64,000 nt of DNA, from positions 61,190 through 125,189 of the forward strand of contig CAZDWJ010000008.1 in NCBI GenBank assembly GCA_964509195.1. The letters are read 5' to 3'. Positions 21,483 through 54,497 of this stretch are shown here, piece by piece. Source of the stretch: an uncultured Leptospira sp. (lineage in GTDB: Bacteria > Spirochaetota > UBA4802 > UB4802). The notes under the pieces are model-generated. The model was not told the origin of the DNA. It did no database searches and was given only the letters and a program-made list of their open reading frames with translations. Position numbers and translations under genes: made by a program. Position 1 is the stretch's first letter, and the number at the start of each line of letters is the position of its first letter.

Positions 21483-21495
21483 ATTTTCACATTCA

Positions 21496-35646: not shown

Positions 35647-36125
35647 GTTTAAATAAATATGATTAGCTTTGTTGTGTAAATAGTTACAGCATACAAATAT
35701 GGATGTATGCGCATAACAGTCAATGCAAATTTTTCTTAAACAGTGGTATGTTTATAGCTTATTGTGAAACAGTCCAATACCTTTGGAAAACAAAGATATA
35801 AAAATGCTATAGTAATGGAAGCTAAAAGTGGGGATAAAATGCGCAATGTAAACCATAGCGGTAAAAAAAAGATCAATGTATTTTAAGTTGGTTTATGCTC
35901 TGCAATATTAAAAAATGATATATGGTGTTTCAGTAAAGTGTTAGTTAATACGTTAGATTTAAGGGAACTTGAGTAAATGCATTTATAAAGAAGTACTCAT
36001 GTCATCCACCAATACACTGTGAAGATATTGCTTTAAAAAAAATTTAAAAAAATTCATTGACAAATCTAGTATATATAATAACATCAGACCATATGATAAT
36101 CTGATTTTTTTTGTGGACAAAAACC

Positions 36126-37121
36126 ATGATTAAAATTGCTGAATTGCTTCCCCCGCGCCCTTCTGCATTGTGGACCATGGTAAAGCAATGTGGAATAGAG
36201 TATGTTGTTGGCGGTATGCAGCATTACGCTGGCTGGGAAAATATGCCAAAGGACTTCTGGCCATGGAGCTATAATTCACTGGTTCATATTAAGACCAATT
36301 ATGAAAACGGAGGATTTACGCTTGGAGTCATTGAATCCCGACCTCCAATGGAAAAAATAAAATTAGGCCTGCCGGGAAGGGATGAAGAAATTGAAAATGT
36401 CATAATGCTTATACAGAACATGGGGAAACTGGGCATTCCCGTATGGTGTTATGAATGGATGCCCGTGTTTGGTTGGACAAGGACTTCAACAACAACGCCC
36501 ATCCGCGGGGGTGCAATGGCTACCTCTTATGATCATGCACTAATGGAAAAGGCTCCAATGACTGAGTACGGAATTGTAACCGAAGAAACATTATGGAAAA
36601 ATCTACAGTATTTTCTAAACGCCGTTATCCCTGAAGCAGAAAAAGCAGGTGTAAAATTAGCCATGCATCCAGATGATCCACCCATTTCTCCTATTCGCGG
36701 TGTTGCGCGTATTATGCGCTCGGTTGAACATTTTCAAAAGTTACTGGATCTTTATCCAAGTGAGTTTAATGGCATTGCATTGTGTCAGGGTAATTTTGCA
36801 TTGATGACGGATGATCTTCCTGCTGTAATCAGAAAATTTGGAAAACAGGGTAAAATCTTTTTTGTCCATTTCAGGAATGTAAAGGGAACCGCACACAAAT
36901 TTACTGAAACATTTCATGACGATGGGATGATTGATATGTACGAATGCATGAAGGCATACTATGAGATTGGCTATGAGGGACTGATGCGTCCTGATCATGT
37001 TCCCACTATGGAAGGCGATAGCAATGATAATCCTGCCTATTCCTCAATTGGTAGGCTTTTTGCCATTGGGTACATAAAGGGCCTGGCGGAAGCAGTTGAA
37101 AAAAATCAATGCGGAAGGTGA
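36126..37121 (+). CDS. uxuA: mannonate dehydratase
   Basis: About 331 aa. It has MHPDDPP, FVHFRNVKG and MRPDHVPTMEGD, characteristic of the short UxuA form. The track start at 36111 is TTG. Confidence 0.85.
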   Translation: MIKIAELLPPRPSALWTMVKQCGIEYVVGGMQHYAGWENMPKDFWPWSYNSLVHIKTNYENGGFTLGVIESRPPMEKIKLGLPGRDEEIENVIMLIQNMGKLGIPVWCYEWMPVFGWTRTSTTTPIRGGAMATSYDHALMEKAPMTEYGIVTEETLWKNLQYFLNAVIPEAEKAGVKLAMHPDDPPISPIRGVARIMRSVEHFQKLLDLYPSEFNGIALCQGNFALMTDDLPAVIRKFGKQGKIFFVHFRNVKGTAHKFTETFHDDGMIDMYECMKAYYEIGYEGLMRPDHVPTMEGDSNDNPAYSSIGRLFAIGYIKGLAEAVEKNQCGR

Positions 37122-37128
37122 ATTAGAT

Positions 37129-37830
37129 ATGGATACCATACAACCAATTAAGCGTAATAAGCTCACTGAATCGATAGTGAATCTGGTATTGACAAATATT
37201 AAAAATGGCACTCTTCCTCCAGGAAGCAAATTGCCTCCCGAGCGGGAATTGATGAAAAAATTGCAGGTGGGGCGTTCCACATTGCGTGAAGCGGTACAGT
37301 CGCTTGCACTTATGGGTATACTGGATGTAAAACCGGGTGAAGGAACTTTTGTAAGAACTATAGCCAAAGAAGAAATTATTGGCCCTCATTTATTTGTTCC
37401 ATTGATTGATAACGAAAGTATGGCAGATTTTTTTGAAGCTCGCCTTTTAATTGAACCACGCATCGCTGCGCTGGCAAGCAAAAGAAGGAATGCAGAGGAT
37501 ATTAAAGCTATTGAAGATACATTGGTAAAGACAAAACAACATATCAATAGTGGGGAAGATGTGGATCGCTTTGCAGGTCAGTTCCACTTGCAGATTGCAA
37601 AGGCATCAAAAAATATTGTGTGTGTCCGCTTTATGGAAGCCATTCTTTCATTCCTGGTTGGGAAAAGAGAAAACGCTGAACGTAATAAAGCCTTTTTACA
37701 ATGGGAGTATGAATCACACGAAAGCATTTTTACAGCAATAAAAAAGGGAGATGAAACAAAAGCATATAAGGCTATGGAGCAACATATTCAGGCAGTTTCA
37801 CAGTGGTATAAAAAATTAGATGTTGTATGA
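37129..37830 (+). CDS. GntR family (FadR/FCD subfamily) transcriptional regulator
   Basis: It has an N-terminal winged helix-turn-helix, GSKLPPERELMKKLQVGRSTLREAVQSLALMGILDVKPGEGTFV, and an all-helical FCD-like C-terminus. The ATG at 37129 follows a GGAAGGTG SD. Confidence 0.85.
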   Translation: MDTIQPIKRNKLTESIVNLVLTNIKNGTLPPGSKLPPERELMKKLQVGRSTLREAVQSLALMGILDVKPGEGTFVRTIAKEEIIGPHLFVPLIDNESMADFFEARLLIEPRIAALASKRRNAEDIKAIEDTLVKTKQHINSGEDVDRFAGQFHLQIAKASKNIVCVRFMEAILSFLVGKRENAERNKAFLQWEYESHESIFTAIKKGDETKAYKAMEQHIQAVSQWYKKLDVV

Positions 37831-37853
37831 TTTTTCACTGATGGAGGTTTGCC

Positions 37854-40700
37854 GTGTATGGGAAACTATCTATTCTATTTTTGATACTTTTTTTTAATGT
37901 TGGGTATGCGATAGCAGCCACGTTCAATGTACTCATCTATCCAACGCCACTAGTATACATACACAATCAATCATATTTTCAGAGAATCATTATACAGGCT
38001 CATCAAGAGTTTGAAGGTGAAATTGTTGCCTGGATGGATGGTGTCAGCACAAAGAAGATAGTTACTACTCCAACAACTAATACAGCTATCGACTGTAAAA
38101 GAAATAGTATCAACTCGCCATCACAATTGAAAATTACTATAAGAAGGAATGATTCTATAGTTGCACAAAAAATCCTGTCAATACCTCCGGTAAAGGAATG
38201 GAAAATCTACTGTGTGCCCTTTGCGCACGTAGACATAGGTTTTACACAATCACAAAAGAATGTCCGCATTCAGAATCTGCGCAATATCGATACACATCTT
38301 TCCTTGTGCCAAAAGACAAAAAACTATCCGCCCGGCTCTCGATTTAAGCTTTTTACGGAAGTGAGCTGGCCTATTATTGAATACCTCAATGACCCGGCAA
38401 CACCTCACAGCAACAAGAATACACTTATTAAAGCATTGAAAAATGGTGATGTTGAGCTGGGTGCTTTTGTCATTTCTCATCAAAATAGGTTTATGAGTAC
38501 TTATGCACTTTTATCATCAGTGCGGCATACACTTACTATCGCACAAAAATACAACGTTGCCGTGAAAACTGCATGTATTCATGATGTCATGGATTTTTCC
38601 AAATTGCCAAAAGTCCTATATGCCAATAATATACCATACTGCCTGATTGGCCCCAATGACTCACGATATATAGTGCCGCCCCTTTTTTATCTAGCATCAC
38701 CTGATGGAAGCGCAAAGGTGCTGGCGTGGCATACCGTTGGGCTTAACGGGTATGGCGAAAATTTTGATTTGAATATGCGTCTTACATTGCCCTTCAAAGA
38801 CGATGATTTTAGCATAATGGAAACCAGCGTTGCACAGCATTTGGCGCAACTTGAAAAAGGATATCCCACAGAAGAAATTTCACGGTATTATGATTATGCA
38901 AACAAACAGTGGAACTATCCCTATGATGCATATCTTTTACCGTATTATCCGTCCCAGGGTGGCGACAATCAGCCTCAGACGATTGTACCTTCAGAAATTG
39001 CAAAGAGATGGAATGCAAAATTTATTAATCCAAAGATAGTCATTGCAACGCCTGCGGATTTCTTTGATTATGTATCAGCTGCGTATGGCGCACAGATTCC
39101 GATTATAAAAGGGGAATTGCCGCCATTCTGGGGTGAACAGATATATTTAGATTTTATTCAGGTTGATCCGCAGCGATTATCAATTAACTACTGGTATGAT
39201 TATGCACACCATTCACGCGGGATACATATGGTACAATCGCTACTTCTTGGTAAGCCTGTTGATATTACATCGTATAGTACACAAAGTCTTGAAGGGTACA
39301 TGGCAATCATACTTAATAATGACCACAATCCCAGACCTGTGCCATTCGGGAAAACGCATTACACAAAGCAGGATGTTCAAGACTGGATGGACACACGCAA
39401 TCAGTGGGTATATGCGCCTTTGAATGTTATGAAGGATGCAAAAGATGTACAGCAAAGCCGTAAGGAAGATGCTTTGTGGACGCTGGTGAACACACAAACA
39501 AATCCTCTAATTCTTGAAAATGCATTCTACCGTATTGCATTTGATAAAACGAAAGGCTGTATTACCAGTATTTTTGATGCACAGCTACAAAAGGAATTGG
39601 TAAACACACAGCACCGCTACGGCTTTAATCAATACGTTATAGGGGTACGGGGTGAAAACACTGGGAAGCGCAATTATTTTGACACCCAGGAAGGATTCAA
39701 ACGCGTCATATCCACGGTATATACAAATCCCAACAACGATTACAAAATAATTGTTAAAGGGTCAGAGCGTTCCTATTACAAGGGTATGGAATTGCTCTCT
39801 GAATTTTTGCATAAAGCATTTGGCATAAAGTTACCACCAACTTTGTTGAAAGTAGCGTATTTTTTCTATCAGCTGTTTACACCATCACTGTCGCTTACAC
39901 AGGAGATTATCATACCTGCTAATGAAAAGCGAATTGATTGTATACAACATTTTGAAGGTACTGCACCTCAAATAGCGGAACATTACTTTGCCTATCCTTT
40001 GGTTTTTGATGAGCTATCGTATGATTCTGGCTTTACGGTTGTAAAATGGAAGAGTCAAGACAATAGCGGTGACCTTATCCCAGCCGCTAAAAATACTGCA
40101 CCATTTAGAAGCATTAACGATACGCTGTATCCATTTCAGTGGATGTACGCAATCCCAACTTCTTTGTATTGTGATGGGTTTGTGTTGCAAAAAGACCGTT
40201 CACACTATGCATTATTTATCACACACAATAGCAAGGCGATAGTTCCAGATAATGATTCAAGTGCATTTTATCACTGTTGCATTGGATGGTCGTTGTGGGG
40301 TACTTTAGGGCTGGGACGCAATTTGCCAGATACTATCGCATTTAAAAGCACTTTTACAAGCTTTACGGCACACACAAAGAATGAAGCGATAGCAACTGCG
40401 TACAAACTTACATTTGATATATCAGGCCACACGAATCAATCGGCTGTAGAGTCACGTAATAGTAATGTGCGTGTTGTATATCTTCAACCTCTTTCAGAAA
40501 AAAGGATTGTTGTTGGTGTTTATGAGCTATCAGGCACGATGCAGTTTACTGAGCTTGTGATAAACACAAAACGTAGGATACTCAAGGCATATCATTCAGA
40601 CATTAATGGAAAAAAAATCAAAGCGCTGCAATTATCAGGAACTTCATTACCATTGAGTCTACATCCACATCAACTATCGTTTATAACATTTGAATTATAA
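37854..40700 (+). CDS. secreted GH38-like glycoside hydrolase (alpha-mannosidase family, tentative)
   Basis: 948 aa. It starts at a GTG after a GGAGG SD and has a signal peptide (LSILFLILFFNVGYAIA). The N-terminal metal-site-like CVPFAHVDIGFT recalls the GH38 H-x-D motif. The family assignment is made by eye only. Confidence 0.45.
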   Translation: MYGKLSILFLILFFNVGYAIAATFNVLIYPTPLVYIHNQSYFQRIIIQAHQEFEGEIVAWMDGVSTKKIVTTPTTNTAIDCKRNSINSPSQLKITIRRNDSIVAQKILSIPPVKEWKIYCVPFAHVDIGFTQSQKNVRIQNLRNIDTHLSLCQKTKNYPPGSRFKLFTEVSWPIIEYLNDPATPHSNKNTLIKALKNGDVELGAFVISHQNRFMSTYALLSSVRHTLTIAQKYNVAVKTACIHDVMDFSKLPKVLYANNIPYCLIGPNDSRYIVPPLFYLASPDGSAKVLAWHTVGLNGYGENFDLNMRLTLPFKDDDFSIMETSVAQHLAQLEKGYPTEEISRYYDYANKQWNYPYDAYLLPYYPSQGGDNQPQTIVPSEIAKRWNAKFINPKIVIATPADFFDYVSAAYGAQIPIIKGELPPFWGEQIYLDFIQVDPQRLSINYWYDYAHHSRGIHMVQSLLLGKPVDITSYSTQSLEGYMAIILNNDHNPRPVPFGKTHYTKQDVQDWMDTRNQWVYAPLNVMKDAKDVQQSRKEDALWTLVNTQTNPLILENAFYRIAFDKTKGCITSIFDAQLQKELVNTQHRYGFNQYVIGVRGENTGKRNYFDTQEGFKRVISTVYTNPNNDYKIIVKGSERSYYKGMELLSEFLHKAFGIKLPPTLLKVAYFFYQLFTPSLSLTQEIIIPANEKRIDCIQHFEGTAPQIAEHYFAYPLVFDELSYDSGFTVVKWKSQDNSGDLIPAAKNTAPFRSINDTLYPFQWMYAIPTSLYCDGFVLQKDRSHYALFITHNSKAIVPDNDSSAFYHCCIGWSLWGTLGLGRNLPDTIAFKSTFTSFTAHTKNEAIATAYKLTFDISGHTNQSAVESRNSNVRVVYLQPLSEKRIVVGVYELSGTMQFTELVINTKRRILKAYHSDINGKKIKALQLSGTSLPLSLHPHQLSFITFEL

Positions 40701-40714
40701 AAGGAGGAAAACGT

Positions 40715-41419
40715 ATGGCACCAGCATATTCGCATGACGAAATTATAAAACTTTGTGAGCGATTGGAGAAAACCTACACGCCAGCAGTGTGTGATACGCT
40801 TGATGAGATGGGCTTTATGCATCAGGCAATGTGTTCTGGATTTATGCCCATTATGCCACGCGCTGCTGTTGCAGGGCCTGCATTTACAATGGAAGAAGCA
40901 AAGACACGCAAAAGCACACGATTAAAAGAGTATGATCCGGAATTTGTTGCCAAGGTGCTTGAGGATCTGTTTGGCACCATGCAAAAGGGGCAGGTGGTAG
41001 CAGTGAATACTAATGAATTTTACGGTGCAGGTGCGTGGGGTGAGCTTATGTCAACGACGTGCAAATTTTTTGGCGGCGTAAAAGGCGCTGTGGTTGATGG
41101 GCCAATTCGGGATATTAATCGCATTCTGGAAATTGAGTTTCCTGTGTGGGCACGCGGTAATATCCCCACCGATTCAATAGGAAGGGTTGATCTTGTTGGC
41201 ATTGGTGGTCCTATATGGTGTGGTGGCGTGCGGGTAAATCCCGGTGACATTATTTTTGCCGACTGTGATGGAGTGGTAGTTATTCCAATGAAGGATGTTG
41301 ATTTAAAAGAAGTGGTTGAAAAAGCAGAAGAGGTGGTGCAGGCAGAACGGCGTTCACGCCAGGAGATACGGCAGGGCAAGTCATTGCTTGATGTGTACCG
41401 CAAATATGGAAAGCTGTAA
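40715..41419 (+). CDS. RraA family protein (class II pyruvate aldolase / oxaloacetate decarboxylase-like)
   Basis: 234 aa. It reads GQVVAVNT...GAGAWGELMSTTCKFFGGVKGAVVDGPIRDINRILEIEFPVWARGNIP, the classic RraA/HMG-CHA aldolase core. It has an AGGAGG SD. Confidence 0.8.
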   Translation: MAPAYSHDEIIKLCERLEKTYTPAVCDTLDEMGFMHQAMCSGFMPIMPRAAVAGPAFTMEEAKTRKSTRLKEYDPEFVAKVLEDLFGTMQKGQVVAVNTNEFYGAGAWGELMSTTCKFFGGVKGAVVDGPIRDINRILEIEFPVWARGNIPTDSIGRVDLVGIGGPIWCGGVRVNPGDIIFADCDGVVVIPMKDVDLKEVVEKAEEVVQAERRSRQEIRQGKSLLDVYRKYGKL

Positions 41420-41433
41420 TGTGAGGAAAGGAT

Positions 41434-42405
41434 ATGAAAACAATAGTTGTAACGGGATGTTCAGGGTATCTGGGGCAGCATGTAGTGCAAACGTTACTAC
41501 AGGAACAATATGCAGTCACCGGCATTGATATAAAAGAATCACCGGCACAGGGTCAGAGCAATTTTACGTTTGTCAAAGGCGATATTGTTGATTCTGAATT
41601 TGTGATGAATGCCTGTAAAAATGCTAATGCCGTAGTCCATTGTGCTGCTGCGCTTGCGCAATTTGTCAAAGATGCACAACGCATGCATGATATAAATGTA
41701 ATTGGTACAAAGAATATCATTGGAGCGTGTAAAAAACATGCCATAAAACAATTAGTATTTATCTCATCGGTTGAAGTGTATGGTATTGATGTGCCCGTTC
41801 CCTGTCCTGAGGATGCACCTTTGCGCCCTGTATGTCCATACGGCGAACACAAGGTTGAAGGGGAGCGGATGTGTGCAGAATTAGCCGGGAAAGGCTGTGG
41901 TGTTGCAATCCTCAGACCACCAACAATTAACGGACCCGGGCAAAACGAGCCTTTCCTTGTTGAACAGATGAAAGCTATAAAACAAGGAAAGCCAGTAATT
42001 CTTCCAGGTGGAGGAAAAACACGATTGCAGATGGTGGATGTCCGCGATGTTGCTCAGGCAGTGCTGCTGTCACTCAAAAAAGTTAGCAAAGGAGTACTCA
42101 TTGCAAATATTGCTAGCGATAATGTGCCTACCATCCGCCAGATGGTAAAAGCTCTGTTTAATCATGCAGGAAAGAAAGAAAAGATACTATCTGTACCTGC
42201 ACCTGTAGCACGTGCTATTGTCAAAACCCTTTCATTGTTTGGCATATCACCGCTGGAACCACAACATCTGGAAATAGCACTGCGCGATTATGTGTTTGAT
42301 AATACACGAGCAAAGAAAGAGTTGGGATGGAAACCAACCAAAAATGACATTGAAAGCGCTATTGATGCATATGAGTGGTTTATCCACCACAATCCTTCGA
42401 CGTAG
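41434..42405 (+). CDS. NAD-dependent epimerase/dehydratase family (extended SDR) oxidoreductase
   Basis: 323 aa. It has a TGCSGYLG Rossmann motif and the catalytic YGEHK (YxxxK). Confidence 0.8.
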   Translation: MKTIVVTGCSGYLGQHVVQTLLQEQYAVTGIDIKESPAQGQSNFTFVKGDIVDSEFVMNACKNANAVVHCAAALAQFVKDAQRMHDINVIGTKNIIGACKKHAIKQLVFISSVEVYGIDVPVPCPEDAPLRPVCPYGEHKVEGERMCAELAGKGCGVAILRPPTINGPGQNEPFLVEQMKAIKQGKPVILPGGGKTRLQMVDVRDVAQAVLLSLKKVSKGVLIANIASDNVPTIRQMVKALFNHAGKKEKILSVPAPVARAIVKTLSLFGISPLEPQHLEIALRDYVFDNTRAKKELGWKPTKNDIESAIDAYEWFIHHNPST

Positions 42406-42539
42406 CATTGAAAATAATGGAATTAGCTATGAAACAGGGGGTTCCACTGCAAAAATTAGTCACTCATAAATTTAGCATTGATGAAGCTGAAGCGGCATTG
42501 CTACGAAGTGATTACATGAAAGCAGTAATTGTGCCATAA
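42405..42539 (+). pseudogene. C-terminal remnant of an MDR-family (zinc ADH / polyol dehydrogenase-like) gene
   Basis: Reads ALKIMELAMKQGVPLQKLVTHKFSIDEAEAALLRSDYMKAVIVP*. This matches only the last roughly 45 residues of MDR dehydrogenases (compare the C-terminus of the intact ADH at 20289..21482). No upstream body is present. Confidence 0.55.
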
Positions 42540-42560
42540 GTATATTGATGAGGATGAGTC

Positions 42561-43262
42561 ATGAACATTTTTTTTATATTAATTGGACAGGCAACCGTTG
42601 TTATTAACGTAAATGGGATAGTCTTTATGACCGATCCCTGGTGGGGCTCTTTTGAATTTTTGCGTGCAGTCCCATTGTCAATAAATCCAGAGGAAATATC
42701 ACCTCTGCATTATATGCTAGTTTCACATAATCACATTGATCATTGGTGTGAGAGTGCCATCAAACTGGCAAAAGAAAAGGATTGCATGGTTATAGGGTCA
42801 ACAAAATCGGTAAAACGTGCCCGTAAAAAGAGTGTTAAACAATGTAAGGCTCTGACCCCGGGCGATAGTGTTGATTGCAATGGTGTTATGGTGTATGCGG
42901 TTCCAGGATTTCATCCATTTGCAAAGGATGCAATAGGCTTTATCATACAAAAAGGTAATATTACACTGTATTTTTCGGGGGATACGCTGTACACTGAAAA
43001 TTTACTCAAGGCTCTGACCCCATACTCAGTAACTATCGCCATGATACAGGTTGCCTGTTCCACCTACCCACTGGTGGGTAAAGACGGGATGGATTTGGAG
43101 GCGGCATCACGCTTTGTTGCAGATGTAAAACCTGGGATTGTAATACCCATACACTATCAGATAAAGGGAAAGTACCTCACTTACGCGCAGTTACAAAACT
43201 GGAACGTTGATGCACAAAAAATTATTTTGCCCCATGGGAAGGAGTTTCATTTGCAAATATAA
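42561..43262 (+). CDS. MBL-fold metallo-hydrolase
   Basis: 233 aa. It has the SHNHIDH (HxHxDH) motif and a later GFHPF/GD. Confidence 0.75.
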   Translation: MNIFFILIGQATVVINVNGIVFMTDPWWGSFEFLRAVPLSINPEEISPLHYMLVSHNHIDHWCESAIKLAKEKDCMVIGSTKSVKRARKKSVKQCKALTPGDSVDCNGVMVYAVPGFHPFAKDAIGFIIQKGNITLYFSGDTLYTENLLKALTPYSVTIAMIQVACSTYPLVGKDGMDLEAASRFVADVKPGIVIPIHYQIKGKYLTYAQLQNWNVDAQKIILPHGKEFHLQI

Positions 43263-43541
43263 GGGAACTTTTAAAAAACCATTTATAAGGTTGTTCCCTT
43301 GTGGGCACAATATATAGGCAAAAACCGCTTTTTTGCTGCTAATTGTAAGGATGAAAGTGGTTTTTAGAGGTGCCCATAATTTCTGGGATTTTAGTGCAAT
43401 TGTTGTAACAAAATGAGAATAGCATGAAAATGTTATATTGATCACTACCAAAAGGAGAAACATCCAGGGTTGTAAAGACTAAATTTTCGATCGCATAATG
43501 ACCTCAAAATGACATTACAAAAAAATATTTTGGAGGAAAGT

Positions 43542-44858
43542 ATGATAGAAAAGCCACCTTCTGGTTTTAACCTCATCAAAGTGTTGGGTCCGGGGCTTGT
43601 GTGGTCGGCAAGTGCAATTGGGGTGTCAGAGCTTGTGTTTGCCACACGTTCTGGCGCGTTATTTGGATATTTGTTGTTATGGGCGCCGATTGTATCTCTT
43701 GTGATGAAGTATGCTATCTTTGAGCTGGTTGGCCGATACACCATTGCAACAGGTCAAAATGTCCTGATTGCATTTGCCCAGGTTGAAATTGATCTAAAAC
43801 TTTTCAAACTAAAAACCGGGTGGGTGATAACACTTTTCTGGATAGTGTTTATTGCAAGTGTTTCAGGAATAGCAGGTATTGCCTTGTCGGTTGGTAGCTG
43901 CATATACGGGCTTGTTCCTGCAATTTCAATGGAGATGGCAACGGTGTGTTCGATAGTAGCTGTTGGAATAATTTTGTATTTAGGAAGTTATGTAACGCTG
44001 GAAAAAATATCACGGGTGCTGGTTTTTGTAATGATACTGTTTTTAGTGTATGCATTAATCGAAACTTCTCCCAATCCAGCTGAGATGGCAGGTGGTCTGC
44101 TACCACGGGCGCCGTTTTACACGTTACGTGAGCTCATTCCGCTTTTAGGGTGGACTGGTGCAGGAGCCATAGGCGTGGTATGGTATTCATTATGGATAGA
44201 AGGCAGTAAACGTGGTAAAGGCGATAACACCATAGATACAGACGAAGACAAGCACAGGATAAAAAAATGGATAACCATTAATCAAATAGATTTAAGCATT
44301 AACACTCTCATCACCGCACTGTTAACAGTATTGTTTTTGATTGCAGGTGCAGTGATATTATACCCCAGAGGTATAGTTCCTAAAGGTGAGCAATTAGGCC
44401 TGCACATATCACAGATTGCAGGGGAGAGCTTTGGCAAAGCAGGCGAGATAATTTTTCTTGTTGGCATCTTTGGCACACTGTTTAGCACATTGCTTGCAAA
44501 TATTGATGGATTATGCCGTGTAGCATCTAACTCTGTGTGGTATAGGCGCAAAAAAGATGGCGATAGCAAGTTGCATTATTATAGACTTTTTGTTTTTGTT
44601 TACGTGATACTCACAGCTCTGTTTGCAGTGGTTTTTCCTGCCCCGGTAATACTATTGCAAATTTCTGCAATCATTGATACAGTTTTTTTGCCACTGGTTA
44701 TTGGTCTTGGTATCTACATCTGCCACACACACCTGCCAGATATCTACCGGCCGGGGAAGACACTTACCATAACTGCAATAGCATCAGCACTTTTTTTTAC
44801 TTTTTTTATTGGACTATTTTTCTGGGCTGTGATAATGAAAGTTAACTTTTCAATGTAA
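43542..44858 (+). CDS. Nramp-related (APC-fold) transporter lacking the canonical metal-binding motif
   Basis: About 438 aa and polytopic. TM1 reads LGPGLVWSASAIGVSELVFATRSGALFGYLLLW. From memory this aligns with MntH [33 protein letters not shown], but DPGN is replaced by GVSE. A GGAGG SD lies 5 nt before the ATG at 43542. Confidence 0.65.
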   Translation: MIEKPPSGFNLIKVLGPGLVWSASAIGVSELVFATRSGALFGYLLLWAPIVSLVMKYAIFELVGRYTIATGQNVLIAFAQVEIDLKLFKLKTGWVITLFWIVFIASVSGIAGIALSVGSCIYGLVPAISMEMATVCSIVAVGIILYLGSYVTLEKISRVLVFVMILFLVYALIETSPNPAEMAGGLLPRAPFYTLRELIPLLGWTGAGAIGVVWYSLWIEGSKRGKGDNTIDTDEDKHRIKKWITINQIDLSINTLITALLTVLFLIAGAVILYPRGIVPKGEQLGLHISQIAGESFGKAGEIIFLVGIFGTLFSTLLANIDGLCRVASNSVWYRRKKDGDSKLHYYRLFVFVYVILTALFAVVFPAPVILLQISAIIDTVFLPLVIGLGIYICHTHLPDIYRPGKTLTITAIASALFFTFFIGLFFWAVIMKVNFSM

Positions 44859-44868
44859 GCACGTAAGT

Positions 44869-45891
44869 ATGAATACTGTTATGTTCGATAGCTCAAAATA
44901 TTTTATCTGCTTTGGGGAAGTGCTCCTACGCATGTCACCACCAGATACTCAGCAGTTGATGCAAACAAATGTGTTTCATTCATATTTTGGTGGTGCTGAA
45001 GCCAATTGTGCAGTGTTGCTATCGCAGCTTGGATTAAAAACAAAATTAATTACTGCAATACCTGATAATGACCTTGGGAAGGCTTTAGTGCGATATTTTA
45101 GATCATTTGGTATTGCTATGGATAATGTCATAGTAGTGCAAGATGCACGAGTGGGAGTTTATTTTTATGAAAAAGGCATAGGTGTGCGTCCTTCACGATT
45201 AATATACGACCGGGGTCACAGTGCGTTTGCATTAATACAAAAAGGTGACATCAACTGGGAAGAGGTTTTGAAAGACTGTGGCTGGTTTCATACTACAGGG
45301 ATAACGCTTTCACTATCGCCGGTAATAGTTGAAGAAACACTGAAAGCATGTGACATTGTGAAGAGTACTCACGGCATTGTATCGTTTGACATTAATTATC
45401 GCTCAACATTATGGAAAGATATACAGTTAGCTAAAAGTATTATTGGCGAATTTGTAAAAAAAGTAGATGTGTTAATTGGGAATGAAGAACATATAAAGAT
45501 GCTTTTATTGTCGGAGAATGTATCACACTATTATGATATTATAGATTATCTTTTTACAAAGTTTCCCAATTTGAACAGTATATTGCTAACACATCGATAT
45601 GGTACAACCGCTTCTGAGGTTGAAATAGGAGCAGTAGCAGCAACACATGATGCTAGTACAGAATTAAAAATTAGAAAACTGCATAATGTTGTTGACCGGG
45701 TGGGTTCAGGAGACGCGATGGCAGCAGCGTTTATGTACGGATTAATGAGTAGCTACACGTTAGAATACTGTGTTGATTTTGCTATAGCAGCTGGTGGTCT
45801 GGCGCATATGATCGATGGTGATAATTTTATTGTGAGTGCTAACGATATCCTTACAGTAATGAAAGATGCAGGCTGGCAATTAATCCGGTAA
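44869..45891 (+). CDS. kdgK: PfkB-family sugar kinase, 2-dehydro-3-deoxygluconokinase-like
   Basis: 340 aa. It has the N-terminal GEVLLRMSPP and C-terminal DRVGSGDAMAAAF motifs typical of KDG kinases. Confidence 0.7.
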   Translation: MNTVMFDSSKYFICFGEVLLRMSPPDTQQLMQTNVFHSYFGGAEANCAVLLSQLGLKTKLITAIPDNDLGKALVRYFRSFGIAMDNVIVVQDARVGVYFYEKGIGVRPSRLIYDRGHSAFALIQKGDINWEEVLKDCGWFHTTGITLSLSPVIVEETLKACDIVKSTHGIVSFDINYRSTLWKDIQLAKSIIGEFVKKVDVLIGNEEHIKMLLLSENVSHYYDIIDYLFTKFPNLNSILLTHRYGTTASEVEIGAVAATHDASTELKIRKLHNVVDRVGSGDAMAAAFMYGLMSSYTLEYCVDFAIAAGGLAHMIDGDNFIVSANDILTVMKDAGWQLIR

Positions 45892-45903: not shown

Positions 45904-46814
45904 ATGGTATCAAAAAAAAGAAGATACATCATAGCTCTTGTAATCGCAGCATGCATTGTACTGGTGGTAATCTGTAAACCAGTTGATAAAGGAAAACCAT
46001 ATAATGATTACTTTGCTTCACTAAATAAAGAATTAAAAACAAGTGGGATTGCATTACCGTGTATCATAATAGATCTTGACTGAGTAGACCATAATATACA
46101 TCAAATGAACAGTTTACTGAAAGCTCCACTTAATTATCGTATAGTAACAAAATCACTGCCTTCCATAGAGTTGCTGGATTATGTGATGAAAAAAAACCAG
46201 CACTAATAAGCTCATGGAATTTCATCAACCATATCTGTCGCTTATAGTAAAAAAGTATGGTTATAACCTGGATATTCTTTTGGGTAAGCCGTTTCCCATA
46301 CAAAGCGTACAAAAATTTTATAATGATTTTCCAAAGAGTGACTATCAGCAGTTATTTGGTGAATGATATTGCAGCAGGCTCATGTGTGGTTAAACCATCT
46401 ACTTTTGATTTTTTTACTCTTGATACACATATTCCAGCACTATTTATTGCAGCTCCAATTTTGAAAAAAATTAATAGCTATGAGGTGCCATTTCTTGAAC
46501 TGTTTAACTGACTGATAGAGTGATGGGATCCAAACTGCAGGCAAACATATTATACGTATGGTGGTGGGTGGAACGAACTTATAGATTCTCCTGAAGGTGT
46601 TTTTGTAAATGCACTGACTGCAAGCCCTCCCAACGAAAATTTGCTTCCCAATCAGAGTATGCTGAATGGGTCATCGTCAACAAAACTTGAAGTGGGGGAT
46701 TTTGTCTTTTATAGGCCAAAACAGGGGGATGCGTTATTTCATTTCTGAGATATTATCGTTATTAGGAATGGTAAAATCATTGCATCGTGGAAACCATTTC
46801 CTGAAAGATTTTAA
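45904..46814 (+). pseudogene. decayed PLP-dependent alanine-racemase-fold (DSD1/D-threonine-aldolase-like) gene
   Basis: The N-terminal piece reads MVSKKRRYIIALVIAACIVLVV...LPCIIIDLD, then an in-frame TGA at 46081. Homology continues across several frames (VDHNIHQMNSLLKAPLNYRIVTKSLPSIELLDYVMKK; LMEFHQPYLSLIVKKYGYNLDILLGKPFPIQSVQKFYNDF; GDFVFYRPKQGDALFHF; GKIIASWKPFPERF*), with multiple stops and frameshifts. The family call is tentative. The disrupted state is clear. Confidence 0.6.
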
Positions 46815-47005
46815 TTTTACAATATCTTTACAGGGTCTTCATAATTTCTTTATAATTATGAGATTTGTTACAGTTAATAGTTAATTCCTATCAGTTATTG
46901 GAATACATTTTTTCAATTTCATATCTGTTGTAGTGGTATTGCTTTTAGCAGCAGCATTGGAAAGTGTATTAAAGGAATTTATAAAACAAATAATAGTAAA
47001 TTGCT

Positions 47006-47914
47006 ATGTTAAAAGATACTTTAAAATCAGCACTTAATATCCACAACGTAAGCGACAAAATGGTGAAATATATCTTCGCTGTTGTGGGATTTTTATCTGT
47101 TTCGTTTTTGTTTTTGATCATGATATTCCTCTTCAAGGAAGGTCTTCCAATTTTTAAAACGGTCAGTCTAAAGGATTTCATTTTTGGAACAAGTTGGTAT
47201 CCAACGTCAGAACCTCCAAAATTTGGGACGTTGCCATTGATTGTAGCATCATTATCAGTTACATTTGTTGCTGCTATTTTAGCTGTGCCATTCAGTTTAG
47301 GGATAGCAATCTATTTATCAGAATTGGCACCTGCATTTGTCCGTGAAATCGTCAAGCCAACCATTGAACTTATAGCATCTATTCCATCGGTTATCATTGG
47401 TTTTTTTGGAATGGTTGTTATTGCTCCATTTCTACAGTACCATTTTGATATTGATACTGGGTTGAATCTTTTTAATGCTTCAATCATGCTTGCTTTTATG
47501 GCAATACCAACAATCGCAAGCATATCAGAGGATGCTTTATCATCTGTACCGATATCATTGAAAGAGGCATCATACGCGCTTGGTGCAAACCGTTGGCAGA
47601 CAATTGTGCACATCACTATGCCTGCAGCTCTTTCAGGTATATGGACAGCTATTATACTAGGTATAGCACGAGTTCTTGGCGAAACAATGGTGGTGCTTAT
47701 GGTAGCTGGTGGTGCAACAACATTTCCCACATCGCTGTTTGACCCGGTGAGACCATTGACATCAAATATTGCTGCTGAAATGGCAGAGGCATCATATCGC
47801 AGTGACCATTATTTTGCATTGTTTGCAATAGGCATAATATTGTTTCTGCTTACGATGCTTTTTAATATTATAGCTAACTACCTTTCATTACGATATAAAT
47901 TCAAATATCATTAA
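47006..47914 (+). CDS. pstC: phosphate ABC transporter permease PstC
   Basis: 302 aa with six TM helices. The EAA-like loop reads SISEDALSSVPISLKEASYALGANRWQT. Confidence 0.9.
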   Translation: MLKDTLKSALNIHNVSDKMVKYIFAVVGFLSVSFLFLIMIFLFKEGLPIFKTVSLKDFIFGTSWYPTSEPPKFGTLPLIVASLSVTFVAAILAVPFSLGIAIYLSELAPAFVREIVKPTIELIASIPSVIIGFFGMVVIAPFLQYHFDIDTGLNLFNASIMLAFMAIPTIASISEDALSSVPISLKEASYALGANRWQTIVHITMPAALSGIWTAIILGIARVLGETMVVLMVAGGATTFPTSLFDPVRPLTSNIAAEMAEASYRSDHYFALFAIGIILFLLTMLFNIIANYLSLRYKFKYH

Positions 47915-47922
47915 AGGAAACT

Positions 47923-48789
47923 ATGGCATCATTACAGGCAAAAGCGAAAGCAATTGAAAAAACATCATTCATAATAATCAGTTCTCTGTCATATATCATA
48001 ATAGCGTTCCTGTTGTTTGTGCTGGGGTACATATTTTTACAGGGTTATCGAGCATTATCATGGGAATTTTTAACTGCATTCCCAAAAAACGAAATGCGTG
48101 AGGGGGGAATCTACCCGGCAATATTAGGAACATTCTACCTTATGGTAGGCTCTTCAGTTATATCGGTTCCTATTGGTATCATGACAGCAATATATTTGAC
48201 TGAGTATGTGGAAAATATTAAGGTGCTCCAATTCATACGGTTGGGTATCAATAATCTAGCTGGTGTACCATCGGTAGTATTTGGCCTTTTTGGATTAAGT
48301 GTTTTTGTTATATTCCTGGATTTTGGTTCTTCTATTGTTGCTGGATCACTAACATTGGGAATTCTCAACCTTCCGCTCGTCATACGTTCAACCGAGGAAG
48401 CACTGCTAACAGTGCCAATTTCATATCGTGAAGCTTCGTTATCGTTAGGTGCAACCAAATGGCAGACAATTTATAAGATAGTTCTGCCAACAGCTCTACC
48501 GGGTATACTGACGGGCATTATGCTGTCACTGGGAAGAGCAGCAGGGGAGACAGCTCCGATAATGTTTACCTGCGCTACATTTTACACACCGCATATCCCT
48601 GACTCCCTGTTCAGTGAAGTGATGGCGCTGCCCTATCACATTTATGTACTGGCTACAGCAGGAACTCACATTGAAGCAACACGGCATATACAATATGGAA
48701 CAGCGATAGTACTTATTGCACTGGTGTTGGGATTAAATTTTACCGGCATGGTATTGCGGTACAAATACAGAAAGAAATTTAAACAGTAG
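47923..48789 (+). CDS. pstA: phosphate ABC transporter permease PstA
   Basis: 288 aa. It reads RSTEEALLTVPISYREASLSLGATKWQTIYKIVLP and lies immediately downstream of pstC. Confidence 0.9.
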   Translation: MASLQAKAKAIEKTSFIIISSLSYIIIAFLLFVLGYIFLQGYRALSWEFLTAFPKNEMREGGIYPAILGTFYLMVGSSVISVPIGIMTAIYLTEYVENIKVLQFIRLGINNLAGVPSVVFGLFGLSVFVIFLDFGSSIVAGSLTLGILNLPLVIRSTEEALLTVPISYREASLSLGATKWQTIYKIVLPTALPGILTGIMLSLGRAAGETAPIMFTCATFYTPHIPDSLFSEVMALPYHIYVLATAGTHIEATRHIQYGTAIVLIALVLGLNFTGMVLRYKYRKKFKQ

Positions 48790-48943
48790 TGTTTTTATTT
48801 TACTCTAAAAGTTTTAATTAAATTGCACCAGCCTCTTTTGATAAAAAATGTGATTTTCATTCTGTATCTGTGACGATTTTGCACTGCAATGAAATTGTTA
48901 AGATGATATTGTTAACAAGCACACATTGTGATAAACTGTAATA

Positions 48944-49237
48944 ATGAAAATATTTACATAGAATGATGAAAAGAATACACTATTGAAAAGAACCGGAGTA
49001 TTTCTTTTTAAGGTTGTGGTTAATTGTATTCAAGAGGGCAAATTATTGTCAATTGTTGAGCATAAAAATCCAGATAGATATCCTAACCAAAGGATGTACA
49101 TAATTGAGTTTAACAATTATGTATATTTAGTCCCTTTTATTAAAACTGAAAAGTAAATTTTTTTGAAAACAATTATTCCCATAAGAAGAGCAACGAAATT
49201 TTCTCTAGAGGAAAATAAAAAAACAAATTTAGTAAAT
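48944..49237 (+). pseudogene. BrnT-like (DUF497-type) toxin gene with two in-frame stop codons
   Basis: A single frame reads MKIFT*NDEKNTLLKRTGVFLFKVVVNCIQEGKLLSIVEHKNPDRYPNQRMYIIEFNNYVYLVPFIKTEK*IFLKTIIPIRRATKF. The TAG (48959..48961) sits where this family has the conserved Trp (W-D-x-x-K-N). The TAA is at 49154..49156. Confidence 0.5.
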
Positions 49238-49500
49238 ATGAAAAGAGATGTAGTAGAATTTTATAAAAATAATGAGTTAGAAAGAAGTTAAGGGGATAAA
49301 GAATAAAATTAAAAGACATGGAAGCCATGCAAAAGCTGCTTTAAAGAACGATAAACGCGTAAATATACGAATTTCACAAAAGAATCTTGAATCATTACAA
49401 AATAGCGTTGGAAGAAGGTATTCCTTACCAAACTTTGATGTCCAGTGTACTTCGTAAATATGCAAATGGGAAATTAGTTGAAGTTAAGAAATATAAATAA
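49238..49500 (+). pseudogene. BrnA-like (CopG/RHH) antitoxin gene with at least two frameshifts
   Basis: It is spread over three frames: MKRDVVEFYKNNELERS*, then KEVKGIKNKIKRHGSHAKAALKNDKRVNIRISQKNLESLQN, then IALEEGIPYQTLMSSVLRKYANGKLVEVKKYK*. The shifts occur at A-runs near 49280 and 49400. Confidence 0.5.
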
Positions 49501-49508
49501 TGATTTTT

Positions 49509-51242
49509 TTACTTATGTGGTATTATAATTGTAAATGTAGAACCATTTGATGAAGAAGTTACTCCAATTGACCAACCTAATATAAGTGCTGCATGTTTCA
49601 CAATTGAAAGGCCAAGTCCTGTACCGCCAGTTTCGCGTGAACGACTTTTATCCACGCGGTAGAAACGCTCAAAGATCCTATTAATTTCATCATGAGGGAT
49701 TCCTATGCCAGTATCAGTGATATATATTGTGAGCAATTGAGGGTTTGAAGTAGCTGTGATAGTGATTGAACCGTGCTCATTGTTGTAATTAATGGCATTG
49801 TCAATTATATTGAAGAATATCTCTTCAGCTAAAAATGCATTCCCCAAAATATTTTCAGGCAGGGATTCAATGTCCATAACTATCGCCAGGTTCTTTTTAT
49901 GAATTTTTGGCATTAGCAGATCAACACACTGTGAAATGACTTTTTTAAGATTAACAGATTCGCTGGTGATGTAGGACGATGTTTCTAATTGATTGAGTTT
50001 AAGCATATCGTTGATGATAGCATTCTGGCGTTCAACATTGGCCAGGGCACTTTCAATAAAATTCTCAGCTGTTTTCTGGTCGCAAATATTGTCTTTAATT
50101 GTTTCTAAATATCCGCGGATGATACTGATAGGTGTTTTTAATTCATGTGAAAGATTGCCCACAAGATCCGATTTGAGTTGCTGTATGCGCTTTTGTTCCG
50201 TGACATCATGCATCAGTAGCAGGGTGCCCGTAGCAGGTTCAGCAAACGGATAGATAAATATCTGAAAATGATTCCCAGCTATTGTTTCTTCAAACGATAT
50301 CCTCTGCTTCTGAGAAAAGGCAACATGTATTTTTGCGTTCAACTCGCTGTGGCGGATGACCGTGAAATAATATTTGTTGGTAATGCTTTCAGGGTACTCA
50401 AAGCAGTGAGCAAATGCTTTATTGTGAATAGTAATTTTTTTATCTTCATCGATTAGTGCAATGGGGTCATGGATGCTTTCAATAATCATGAAAAGTTTGT
50501 TCTTTTCATTGGTAAGTTCGTTGATGCGCTGCTGTATGTTATCTGCCAGCTGATTCATGGCTTTTTGCAAATATCCCATTTCATCATCTTTGTAATTGAG
50601 AATACGTGCACCAAGATCACCATTGAAAAACCTGTGTATGAACTGCAATGAATCCTTGATTGGTTTTGTGAAAGCAGTGGCAAACAGTGCAGTAACTATA
50701 ACACTTATCACCAATACAACAATACCAACAGCAAGAATATTTTTAGTGATGGATTCAATCAATGCGTTAATAGTATTCAATGATTTAGCTGTGCGGATAT
50801 AGTAATAATTGTAATATGAGGCAACATATAGCATATCGGCATTCATTGTAGTACTGTATCGTACAGACATACCGGTGCCCTTTTTTCGTGCTTCCAGGAT
50901 TTCAGGGCGGTATAAGTGGTTTTCCATTAAATCAGGATTGGCATCTGAATCAAAAATGACGGTACCATCATTCTGTATGATAGTAATGCGCAAAGAACTT
51001 TTCTGAGCAACATTTTTTAACGCAGTTGCTATCTCATTGTTAAAAAACATTTTGCTCACTGGTTTGTGAAATGAAAGGAGGTAGGTGTTTATATATTCAA
51101 TATTTTGCTGCAATTCAACTTTTAAAAATATTCTGAATTCATTCTGTATATGGCGTTGAATGTATAATAAAAGAAGCGAAATAAAAAGGATTAATGCTAT
51201 AGAATAAACAATGATTAATTTTGATTTAAGGCTCTGTATCAT
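49509..51242 (-). CDS. phoR: phosphate regulon sensor histidine kinase
   Basis: 577 aa. It has two TM segments, HAMP and PAS domains, the H-box LSHELKTPISII, and N/G boxes IIDNAINYN, DTGIGIP and GGTGLGLSIVK. It follows phoB. Confidence 0.85.
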   Translation of the reverse strand: MIQSLKSKLIIVYSIALILFISLLLLYIQRHIQNEFRIFLKVELQQNIEYINTYLLSFHKPVSKMFFNNEIATALKNVAQKSSLRITIIQNDGTVIFDSDANPDLMENHLYRPEILEARKKGTGMSVRYSTTMNADMLYVASYYNYYYIRTAKSLNTINALIESITKNILAVGIVVLVISVIVTALFATAFTKPIKDSLQFIHRFFNGDLGARILNYKDDEMGYLQKAMNQLADNIQQRINELTNEKNKLFMIIESIHDPIALIDEDKKITIHNKAFAHCFEYPESITNKYYFTVIRHSELNAKIHVAFSQKQRISFEETIAGNHFQIFIYPFAEPATGTLLLMHDVTEQKRIQQLKSDLVGNLSHELKTPISIIRGYLETIKDNICDQKTAENFIESALANVERQNAIINDMLKLNQLETSSYITSESVNLKKVISQCVDLLMPKIHKKNLAIVMDIESLPENILGNAFLAEEIFFNIIDNAINYNNEHGSITITATSNPQLLTIYITDTGIGIPHDEINRIFERFYRVDKSRSRETGGTGLGLSIVKHAALILGWSIGVTSSSNGSTFTIIIPHK

Positions 51243-51249
51243 TATGCTG

Positions 51250-51930
51250 TTACCCTTTTAACCCGTAGCCAACGCCAGAATACGTCTTGATGGCTTCCTT
51301 ATAATGCCCTAACTTTTTCCTTAAATTCATAATATGCACGTCAACCGTTCTGTCAATTACATATACATTATCTCCGCGAATACTGTCGATGATGTTATCA
51401 CGGGAAAATATTTTGCCAGGGTATTGCATGAAGAGTTTAAGAATAAGAAATTCGGTTTTTGTTAAATCAACGGGTTCTTTGTCGATAGTTACTGAAAATT
51501 TTTCTGGATACAGTGCAATGCCTTTATATGTTAGGACTTCTTTCGGTGTTTCTTCTTTGCCATGGACACGCCGCAAGATTGCTTTCACACGGGCAATGAG
51601 TTCGTGTATGCTAAATGGTTTGGTGATGTAGTCATCAGCTCCCAATTCAAGCCCTAACACTTTATCAAGCTCTGCTGATTTTGCTGACAGGAATAAAATG
51701 GGGATTTCTTTTAAATTGCTGGATGCCCGGATCTGCTTACACAGATCCAATCCATCCATACCGCTCATCATGATGTCAAGAATTAAAAGATCAGGTTTGG
51801 CGATAGCTAACTGTTTTAAAACCTCTTCAGCTGAAGCAAATGTAAAAACATCATACCCATTTTTTTGAAGATTGACTTTCAGGATCTCGCGAATATCCTT
51901 TTCATCATCAACAACATATATTTTTGGCAT
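51250..51930 (-). CDS. phoB: OmpR-family phosphate regulon response regulator
   Basis: 226 aa. It has a receiver domain (DLLILDIMMSGMDG) and a winged-helix domain (LTKTEFLILKLF...GVGYGL). Confidence 0.85.
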   Translation of the reverse strand: MPKIYVVDDEKDIREILKVNLQKNGYDVFTFASAEEVLKQLAIAKPDLLILDIMMSGMDGLDLCKQIRASSNLKEIPILFLSAKSAELDKVLGLELGADDYITKPFSIHELIARVKAILRRVHGKEETPKEVLTYKGIALYPEKFSVTIDKEPVDLTKTEFLILKLFMQYPGKIFSRDNIIDSIRGDNVYVIDRTVDVHIMNLRKKLGHYKEAIKTYSGVGYGLKG

Positions 51931-51933
51931 GCA

Positions 51934-52587: not shown

Positions 52588-52608
52588 TGTGGTCTCCTTA
52601 AAAAAGTA

Positions 52609-54472: not shown

Positions 54473-54497
54473 TGTACATACAAAATATTGATTTATA

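Follow-up and report, generated by a model that had tools for sequence, protein, structure and literature searches.

Which sugar feeds a bacterial locus that joins D-mannonate dehydratase (UxuA) to 2-keto-3-deoxygluconate (KDG) kinase (KdgK), when the usual partners of these two enzymes in hexuronate catabolism are missing around it? The question is raised by positions 36.0–45.9 kb of a 64,000-nt stretch of DNA from a metagenome-assembled genome of the Spirochaetota, that of an uncultured Leptospira sp. (contig CAZDWJ010000008.1), called the window below. Eight intact genes and one gene remnant, all on the + strand, follow each other here in the series uxuA, gntR, GH38-like, RraA-like, extended short-chain dehydrogenase/reductase (SDR), remnant of a medium-chain dehydrogenase/reductase (MDR), metallo-β-lactamase (MBL)-fold hydrolase, Nramp-like and kdgK (Table 1). 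All nine elements were found where an earlier reading of the same DNA, the original prediction, had placed them, and the gene content is as it claimed; the short gaps that it described do not extend to the spacer between the MBL and Nramp-like genes, which measures 246 nt. It was also right that uxuB, uxaC and eda are missing from the window: Pfam searches of every open reading frame (ORF) of at least 200 aa found no Eda, UxaC or UxuB in the 64 kb, and probes for Eda, LarA and IlvD gave no tblastn match there. The answer proposed here, to which we give an even chance, is that GntR represses here an operon for the catabolism of glycans or glycosides containing a manno-configured sugar, which would be degraded by an oxidative route via mannonate to KDPG (2-keto-3-deoxy-6-phosphogluconate). 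Several phyla of uncultured anaerobes have in common a gene cluster of which the locus is a lineage-specific form, and no published account of this cluster was found in a literature search.

UxuA, KdgK and the conservation of the locus

UxuA and KdgK are bona fide members of their families, as predicted originally, judged by hidden Markov model (HMM) scores and by their solved relatives. UxuA scores 252.7 bits against the NCBIfam model PRK03906 (cut-off 191) and 185.9 against the equivalog TIGR00695, slightly under its cut-off of 199.55. It is of the short form, in which an insert is missing and the HMM match falls into two stretches. Its best solved relative is UxuA of S. suis (3ban, E 8e-55), to which it aligns in the motifs HPDDPP and RPDH, and identity in the relatives of the locus is 84–89%. 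Since the peptide MIKIAELLPP is conserved in these relatives, the true start of the gene is ATG 36126 and not TTG 36111. A tRNA-Tyr called by ARAGORN (92 nt, 36794–36885, + strand) lies within the conserved uxuA coding sequence and is almost certainly a false positive. The best PDB match of KdgK is the KDG kinase of T. maritima (2afb, E 3e-57) and its best model match the kinase half of a KHG/KDPG aldolase-kinase fusion (NF041633, 293 bits), while it stays under every cut-off of the NCBIfam KDG-kinase equivalogs; a specificity for KDG is suggested by its sequence.

A profile of the RraA-like protein fetched 80 metagenomic loci, all ORFs of which were clustered, and the 33 loci carrying both the extended SDR and the MBL genes are taken as core loci (labels L001–L097 denote the relatives' loci compared with the window). 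The RraA-like gene is present in all 33, a figure that carries no weight because this gene served as the search anchor. The order uxuA-gntR-GH38-like-RraA-like-SDR-(MDR)-MBL-Nramp-like-kdgK is kept in L001, L003, L006, L016–L019 and L059; a second lineage of Spirochaetota (L004, L005, L020, L021, L096 and L097) has uxuA downstream on the opposite strand, where it adjoins an HpcH/HpaI aldolase gene. Comparison of genomic context bears out the locus as a unit: the operon recurs in about 15 Spirochaetota-type loci, and its arrangement is not due to chance and represents a conserved functional unit. The core of RraA-like, extended SDR, (MDR), MBL and Nramp-like genes furthermore recurs in Desulfomonilia, in Chloroflexota and on other contigs of metagenome-assembled genomes (MAGs). 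Locus L003 (DYKN01000060.1) is a Spirochaetota-type operon, with genes 55–91% identical to those of the window, on a contig labelled as a Rikenella microfusus MAG, and this contig is probably mis-binned. Divergent from the gntR operon, L096 and L097 carry at positions 1–6350 a LacI-regulated block with Oxidored_FMN, a classical SDR, a 680-aa FAD_binding_2 protein, ThuA and a Gfo/Idh/MocA oxidoreductase, which is reminiscent of 3-keto-glycoside pathways.

The GH38-like family of the window is found in 15 of the 33 core loci and a second, cytoplasmic GH38-like family in five; KdgK is present in 15 and a homologue of the regulator in 13. As to the dehydratase, ten core loci have only UxuA, 18 have only an IlvD/EDD-type dehydratase (17 of them also with a LarA-like Ni-pincer 2-hydroxy-acid epimerase), and none has UxuA and IlvD together (Fisher test p=3e-5, a descriptive value only, the loci not being phylogenetically independent). 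Oxidoreductase, hydrolase and acid-sugar dehydratase are co-inherited, 28 of the 33 core loci having UxuA or IlvD and L011 a dehydratase of the MR_MLE type. The substrates of IlvD/EDD dehydratases are 2R acids, gluconate among them. The pair of LarA and IlvD is therefore a plausible non-orthologous replacement for UxuA, with a 2S (manno) aldonate as the common intermediate, since the LarA superfamily includes D-gluconate/D-mannonate 2-epimerases (PMC11770544). Other parts are exchanged as well: L010 keeps the MBL and RraA-like genes together with IlvD, an FAD oxidoreductase and a classical SDR; L011 combines its dehydratase of the enolase superfamily with an MFS carrier and a semialdehyde dehydrogenase; and L069/70 has a GH13-like glycosidase, MR_MLE, a classical SDR and Eda. 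These swaps match the pattern expected of a pathway family consisting of glycosidase, sugar dehydrogenase, lactonase and acid-sugar dehydratase.

Upstream of uxuA, a TTGACA box and the block downstream of it are kept in L001, L003–L006, L016, L018–L021 and L059, and position 36057, at which the original prediction let the locus begin, is this conserved −35 box. The promoter-like element is followed by a palindrome with the consensus CATCAGAccaT(A/C)TGAT(A/G) across the Spirochaetota-type loci, which overlaps the −10 region at a position constant in all of them and in L004 and L021 takes the form of a perfect inverted repeat of 7 bp, CATCAGA-cca-TCTGATG. The site CATCAGAccaTATGATA occurs as a single copy in the window, one match being within chance expectation; it is because of its conservation across loci that the palindrome is regarded as a candidate operator of the GntR repressor. 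The gene of this regulator probably starts at ATG 37129, and the NCBIfam models nearest to its product are NanR, LldR and PdhR, all under cut-off. The long spacer between the MBL and Nramp-like genes (43263–43508; 22–154 nt in relatives) holds an inverted repeat GGGAAC...GTTCCC and promoter-like hexamers, and may reflect either an insertion scar or an additional transcription start. Rfam models gave no match in the locus or in the 1.1-kb gap after kdgK.

Table 1. Features of the locus, in positions of the window, and the evidence for each assignment
Feature	Coordinates	Strand	Evidence
Promoter-like site TTGACA-16-TAACAT	36057..36084	+	upstream of uxuA; consensus scan
Candidate GntR operator CATCAGAccaTATGATA	36082..36098	.	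cross-locus conservation
uxuA, short-form D-mannonate dehydratase, 331 aa	36126..37121	+	PF03786 E 5e-96, 322 bits
GntR/FCD (FadR-type) regulator	37096..37830	+	PF00392 and PF07729
Exported GH38-like glycosidase (predicted), 948 aa	37854..40700	+	AlphaFold2 (AF2) model and Foldseek; marginal PF01074
RraA-like protein, 234 aa, class II pyruvate-enolate enzyme type	40715..41419	+	PF03737 E 1.5e-31
Extended SDR oxidoreductase, 323 aa	41434..42405	+	PF01370 E 2e-43
MDR Zn-dependent dehydrogenase remnant, C-terminal ~51 codons	42384..42539	+	frame translation
MBL-fold metal hydrolase, 233 aa, HNHIDH motif, candidate lactonase	42561..43262	+	PF12706 and PF13483
Nramp-fold transporter, 449 aa	43509..44858	+	PF01566 E 4e-18; NF037982 107 bits (cut-off 50)
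KdgK, 2-keto-3-deoxygluconate kinase, pfkB family	44869..45891	+	PF00294

Glycosidase, entry enzymes and carrier

The 948-aa protein carries a signal peptide and an additional N-terminal β-sandwich. PF01074 reaches 27.2 bits against a cut-off of 25, though no single stretch passes, PF07748 reaches 18.5 against 25, and there is no NCBIfam match. Its AF2 model, made from 27 homologues (pLDDT 88.4, pTM 0.89), predicts the multi-domain architecture of GH38, with an N-terminal (β/α)7 barrel, a helical linker and C-terminal β-sandwich domains. The best 40 Foldseek matches of the model in the PDB are all GH38 α-mannosidases (E 1e-30 to 2e-18), aligned over the whole chain (~1000–1170 columns) with TM-scores of ~0.5–0.6 and ~10–11% identity, which speaks against the unrelated family that the original prediction had allowed for. 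The family profile also matches Ams1 by sequence (E 2.8e-12) and puts 'ihDvmDfS' on the nucleophile motif of Ams1, 'lpDtfGyS', and 'nnDHnP' on its His motif, 'cqfHDvlpG'. Residues H125, D127, D244 and H491, which we take to be the equivalents of the metal and nucleophile residues of dGMII, are invariant in 27 family members; the metal-binding His/Asp/Asp/His residues and the nucleophile Asp of GH38, in a motif resembling D-x-F-G-x-S, are thus present, and every orthologue begins with a signal or lipoprotein peptide. With fold, invariant residues and signal peptides all in agreement, the secreted GH38-like glycosidase of the original prediction stands: the protein represents a divergent GH38-type family and is probably an exported glycosidase, predicted to be active. 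It has the multi-domain architecture and the H/D/D/H residues in common with the known GH38 α-mannosidases (SpGH38 2wyh, Bl_Man38A–C 7ufr/7ufs/7uft, Ams1 6lz1), and differs from them in its low identity, its marginal Pfam score, the extra N-terminal β-sandwich and the signal peptide. The GH38 mechanism links the metal site to a manno-type cis-2,3-diol, and since the site is retained, the sugar recognized presumably has such a diol.

In a word-indexed search this family had only 45 homologues among the cluster representatives, of which 43 had E <1e-60; all are from MAGs, and most from Spirochaetota. In other loci the cytoplasmic GH38-like family (872 aa; PF01074 E 4e-10) substitutes for it, often adjoining a GPH symporter gene. 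Of the more distant GH38-like homologues, that of L008 stands without linked pathway genes and that of L009 has only an unrelated SDR beside it. One homologue from a cultured organism, Paenibacillus P0158, which is 43% identical and stands in an unrelated ABC-transporter context, was uninformative.

In the extended SDR the motifs GxxGxxG and YxxxK are present, and an Asp following β2 suggests that it uses NAD; its best PDB matches are a GDP-sugar 4-epimerase (8rdg) and NSDHL. The spacer of 155 nt between the SDR and MBL genes reads in one frame, out of frame with the SDR gene, PPQSFDVALKIMELAMKQGVPLQKLVTHKFSIDEAEAALLRSDYMKAVIVP followed by a stop codon. This peptide is 75% identical to residues 340–383 of the intact 383-aa MDR of L017, which bears out the MDR remnant of the original prediction, and distant MDR orthologues match window positions 42384–42536 by tblastn. 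In L016 and L017, the closest relatives, the SDR and MBL genes are separated by an intact MDR gene. DNA alignment puts the deletion junction at the microhomology GAGTGGT/CAGTGGT, with ~1 kb lost, and the last ~7 residues of the SDR have become chimeric, being translated from MDR DNA out of frame. The loss of the MDR gene is a recent microhomology deletion. Since only ten of the 33 core loci have the MDR gene and the other relatives lack it cleanly, the MDR is an accessory enzyme. On the − strand, at 20289–23151, another Zn-dependent dehydrogenase of the MDR type, which has 25% identity to the deleted one, is encoded beside a thiamine pyrophosphate-dependent enzyme and is unlinked to the operon. 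The MBL-fold protein scores under cut-off against the NCBIfam models PRK00685 (E 3e-17) and UlaG lactonase (E 5e-12), and its best PDB match is TM_1162 (E 3e-8); it resembles the UPF0173 hydrolases and, more weakly, the UlaG lactonase.

The Nramp-like protein is the sole carrier encoded within the operon. Against the MntH model PRK00701 it scores 48.5 (cut-off 430), and in an alignment with a hand-entered reference sequence of E. coli MntH, GVSE stands at the position of DPGN in transmembrane helix 1 (TM1) and A-x-x-M-P-H of TM6 is missing, so that the metal motifs of Nramp/MntH are absent. An Arg in TM1 is conserved in its family. An exhaustive search of 1.84 billion representatives gave just 22 such proteins at E<=1e-30, with identity falling from 52% to at most 34% after the first match; more distant relatives share G-x-G-E, and this wider clade of Nramp relatives appears uncharacterised. 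In Spirochaetota relatives the protein is 79–94% identical, and its gene is found in 26 of the 33 core loci; it constitutes a very small orthologous group tied to the sugar-acid cluster. With the divalent-metal transporters of the Nramp/MntH type it has the fold family in common, by HMM, whereas it lacks their DPGN and A-x-x-M-P-H motifs and its gene lies inside a sugar-acid operon. This is a warning against annotating such genes as metal transporters.

From these parts an oxidative reading, from mannoside to mannonate, KDG and KDPG, is plausible. The exported, metal-dependent GH38-type glycosidase would release the sugar, presumably a manno-configured one, outside the cytoplasm, and the Nramp-fold carrier without metal site would probably take up the monosaccharide or the corresponding acid. 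Oxidation of the sugar at C1 would follow in the cytoplasm, by the NAD-type extended SDR, and the MBL-fold hydrolase would open the resulting lactone to D-mannonate, as family, synteny and analogy suggest for both; the Zn-dependent MDR, deleted here, would formerly have been accessory to this step. UxuA would then convert D-mannonate to KDG and KdgK would convert KDG to KDPG, both with firm family assignments. KDPG would most likely be cleaved by an aldolase whose gene lies elsewhere in the genome, the RraA-like enzyme acting at the level of the 2-keto-3-deoxy acid and not simply as a replacement for Eda. Of the oxidative mannoside-to-KDG pathway as first proposed, the glycosidase, UxuA, KdgK and the conserved unit hold, and the RraA-type aldolase in place of Eda does not.

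The RraA-like protein and competing routes

With 234 aa instead of ~160, and with scores of 35.1 against PRK09372 (cut-off 136) and 18.4 against TIGR02998 (cut-off 241), the RraA-like protein differs from RraA, the regulator of RNase E. It does not reach the LigK equivalogs either (PRK09262, 94.9 against 179; TIGR02798, 81.9 against 304.5). Its invariant residues R132–D133 and E110 align with R123–D124 and D102 of the HMG/CHA aldolase 3noj, presumably the catalytic and metal-site residues of the latter, and thus the Arg-Asp pair and the acidic metal-site residue of this aldolase are kept. The RraA-like proteins are a highly conserved subfamily of their own, found only in MAGs, with 60–95% identity across Spirochaetota, Desulfomonilia, Chloroflexota, Hydrogenedentota and others. 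Their genes are linked to four unrelated dehydratase families, UxuA, IlvD/EDD, MR_MLE and GD_AH, and remain associated with a dehydratase gene in loci that lack those of the SDR and MBL proteins (the type C loci, L013, L048 and L054). Since the Arg-Asp/acidic site is kept and four dehydratase families are linked, the protein very probably works on a 2-keto-3-deoxy acid by pyruvate-enolate chemistry; it could be a parallel non-phosphorylative aldolase or catalyse a related C–C or tautomer step. Type C (L012, L030, L035 and L045) is another cluster around the same subfamily, with genes for a 209-aa membrane protein, the RraA-like protein, a split SAF and GD_AH dehydratase, a LarA-like protein, a GPH symporter and a Mo-hydroxylase-type (aldehyde oxidoreductase-like) subunit, and it looks like a non-phosphorylative acid-sugar route. 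FlDet of Flavobacterium UMI-01 is a 2-keto-3-deoxyglucarate (KDGR) dehydratase/decarboxylase (PMC8563752). The window protein has the PF03737 fold family and the Arg-Asp/acidic metal site in common with FlDet and with the HMG/CHA aldolase LigK/3noj; it stays under the equivalog cut-offs of LigK and is 28% identical to FlDet, no nearer than to other RraA-fold proteins, and orthology to FlDet was accordingly rejected. The subfamily is a warning against annotating these genes as RNase regulators.

The original prediction had the RraA-like protein substitute for Eda, which would make the pathway self-contained, with this protein as the KDPG (or KDG) aldolase of the organism. The conserved site of class II pyruvate aldolases and the association with four non-homologous acid-sugar dehydratase families would suit such a role, as would the lack of any other aldolase in the window-type loci. 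The subfamily is, moreover, paired with a Mo aldehyde oxidoreductase in type C and with a semialdehyde dehydrogenase in L011, as expected after aldol cleavage. However, RraA-like homologues 56–78% identical to that of the window share their cluster with a genuine Eda (PF01081; TIGR01182 173, cut-off 156) in seven loci (L022, L024, L046, L047, L031, L064 and L066), and in the second Spirochaetota lineage the RraA-like gene is found beside that of the HpcH/HpaI aldolase. The best model of KdgK is, furthermore, the kinase half of Eda-kinase fusions, and FlDet, the sole characterised RraA-like sugar-acid enzyme, is a dehydratase/decarboxylase and no aldolase. Because Eda or an HpcH/HpaI aldolase co-occurs with it in homologous clusters, the RraA-like protein is unlikely as a general replacement for Eda. 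Its replacing Eda in this organism is unlikely, too, and for the window lineage an unlinked eda gene is the simpler assumption.

The same two firmly assigned steps, UxuA and KdgK, would also be met by a reductive uronate route, in which the GH38-like enzyme frees a mannuronate-like acid, the MBL protein opens a uronolactone and the SDR is an NADH-dependent reductase forming D-mannonate. Such a route would be redox-favourable for a fermenter; the extended SDR family is rich in carbonyl reductases, and the SDR of the window is not close to known aldose dehydrogenases. The conserved TM1 Arg of the Nramp-like family would suit an anionic substrate, and GPH symporters of the hexuronide type occur in sister loci. 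Against this, the MDR, classical SDR and FAD enzymes and the GH13-like glycosidase that stand beside the MBL gene in sister clusters fit better with the oxidation of a neutral sugar, no lyase or unsaturated-uronide hydrolase is linked in the loci compared, and no GH38 member is known to act on uronides; the reductive route is judged quite improbable. A job for both the RraA-like protein and Eda, and hence their co-occurrence, would be explained if the former came first, cleaving an imported KDN-like 2-keto-3-deoxy higher acid to pyruvate and mannose, which the SDR and MBL proteins would pass on to mannonate and further to KDPG. The best model match of the regulator, NanR (E 6e-43, under cut-off), points in the same direction. 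The RraA-like gene is, however, tied to a dehydratase in those loci in which SDR and MBL are missing, no sialidase-type or nonulosonate genes are linked, and the linked glycosidases have the GH38 fold, which leaves this order of events only a very slim chance.

Several points weigh against the oxidative mannoside route as well. The nearest solved relatives of the SDR are NDP-sugar epimerases and enzymes of the 3-beta-HSD type, not Udh or AldT. A role of the MBL protein as sugar lactonase is suggested by family-level resemblance to UlaG, and the characterised pentonolactonases belong to the SMP30 superfamily and not to the MBL fold, according to a review of oxidative pentose pathways (PMC9795676); the idea of an MBL-fold pentonolactonase in Haloferax was dropped, as this review contradicts it. 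The LarA-like proteins of sister clusters score best against malate/lactate racemase models, all under cut-off, and reach only 73 bits against the model of a putative hexonate epimerase. An identification of the LarA-like partner with a known gluconate 2-epimerase is thus unsupported, and the argument for an epimerase rests on superfamily precedent and on the mutual exclusion with UxuA. In some sister loci the Nramp-like protein coexists with GPH or MFS carriers, and it may not be the main importer. For a fermenter it is odd, in terms of energy, to oxidise mannose rather than phosphorylate it, the RraA-like protein is left without a pathway step, and the host organism is uncultured.

Neighbouring regions, known pathways and significance

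A conserved element of ~140–190 nt follows kdgK (46383–46465 and 46656–46866 in the window, 17796–17981 in L001) and is found between glgX and uxuA in L006, L018 and L019. It encodes a peptide ..GDFVFYRPKQGDAL..GK..WKPIPERF ending at a stop codon, the reading frame of which is broken in the window, and may be either a small ORF or what is left of the C-terminal end of a lost gene. The ABC permease genes at 47006–48789, which follow kdgK also in L001, L002, L017 and L018, were considered as part of the operon and rejected, since genes for PhoR, PhoB, PhoU, PstB and two PstS proteins surround them and they belong to a Pst/Pho cluster. This phosphate-uptake/Pho regulon block (47006–55452) lies directly downstream and is unrelated to the sugar operon; its + strand carries two BPD_transp_1 permeases (PstC/PstA-like) and then two PstS-like binding proteins, its − strand a HisKA sensor, a response regulator, PhoU and an ABC ATPase. 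Elsewhere in the window, a fluoride riboswitch (RF01734, 43.8 bits; 8298–8358, − strand) is located upstream of a gene of the Na+/H+-exchanger family (7026–8249).

Among known systems, the logic of mannose to mannonolactone, mannonate and KDG is shared with the route proposed for Thermoplasma acidophilum (AldT Ta0754, ManD and the KDG aldolase Ta1157), which is only 'indicated' by in-vitro work (PMC6901390), and a mannonate dehydratase is found in both. The candidate dehydrogenase of the window is an extended SDR, with an accessory MDR, whereas AldT is a homologue of bacterial glucose dehydrogenases. The lactone would be opened by a dedicated MBL-fold hydrolase and not spontaneously as in the Thermoplasma cascade, and phosphorylation of KDG by KdgK would make the route semi-phosphorylative, while that of Thermoplasma is non-phosphorylative. 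The operon adds the exported GH38-like protein, the Nramp-fold carrier, GntR and the RraA-like protein, and its hosts are bacterial anaerobes. The hexuronate isomerase pathway of E. coli (UxaC-UxuB-UxuA-KdgK-Eda, UxuR/ExuR) has UxuA, KdgK, a GntR/FCD regulator and the intermediates D-mannonate and KDG in common with the locus; UxaC, UxuB and Eda are absent from the 64 kb, and the locus has GH38-like, extended SDR and MBL proteins as putative entry enzymes, which sets it apart from that pathway. The semi-phosphorylative Entner-Doudoroff variants of haloarchaea and clostridia follow the same order of reaction types, and in sister clusters a dehydratase of the IlvD/EDD type is combined with KdgK and Eda. 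In contrast to these variants, the intermediate would be of manno and not of gluco configuration, taken by UxuA or by a LarA-like epimerase with IlvD, and the window cluster differs in lactonase fold, transporter and the extra RraA-like enzyme.

A wider interpretation, which is held only tentatively, is that of a cross-phylum, unrecognised pathway for manno-configured sugars, in which a new GH38-like family, a re-purposed Nramp carrier, an extended SDR as aldose dehydrogenase and an MBL aldonolactonase would lead to D-mannonate. If this is true, mannose-type sugars would have a bacterial oxidative entry route that makes no use of hexokinase and phosphomannose isomerase and extends across Spirochaetota, Desulfomonilia, Chloroflexota and further uncultured anaerobes. 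Testable functions would also follow for four groups of poorly understood proteins, namely the divergent GH38-like, MBL/UPF0173-like and metal-site-less Nramp-fold groups and the RraA-like subfamily. With the exchange of UxuA for LarA and IlvD, nature has provided a clean experiment from which the annotation of Ni-pincer epimerases and of sugar-acid dehydratases of the IlvD type in metagenomes can profit.

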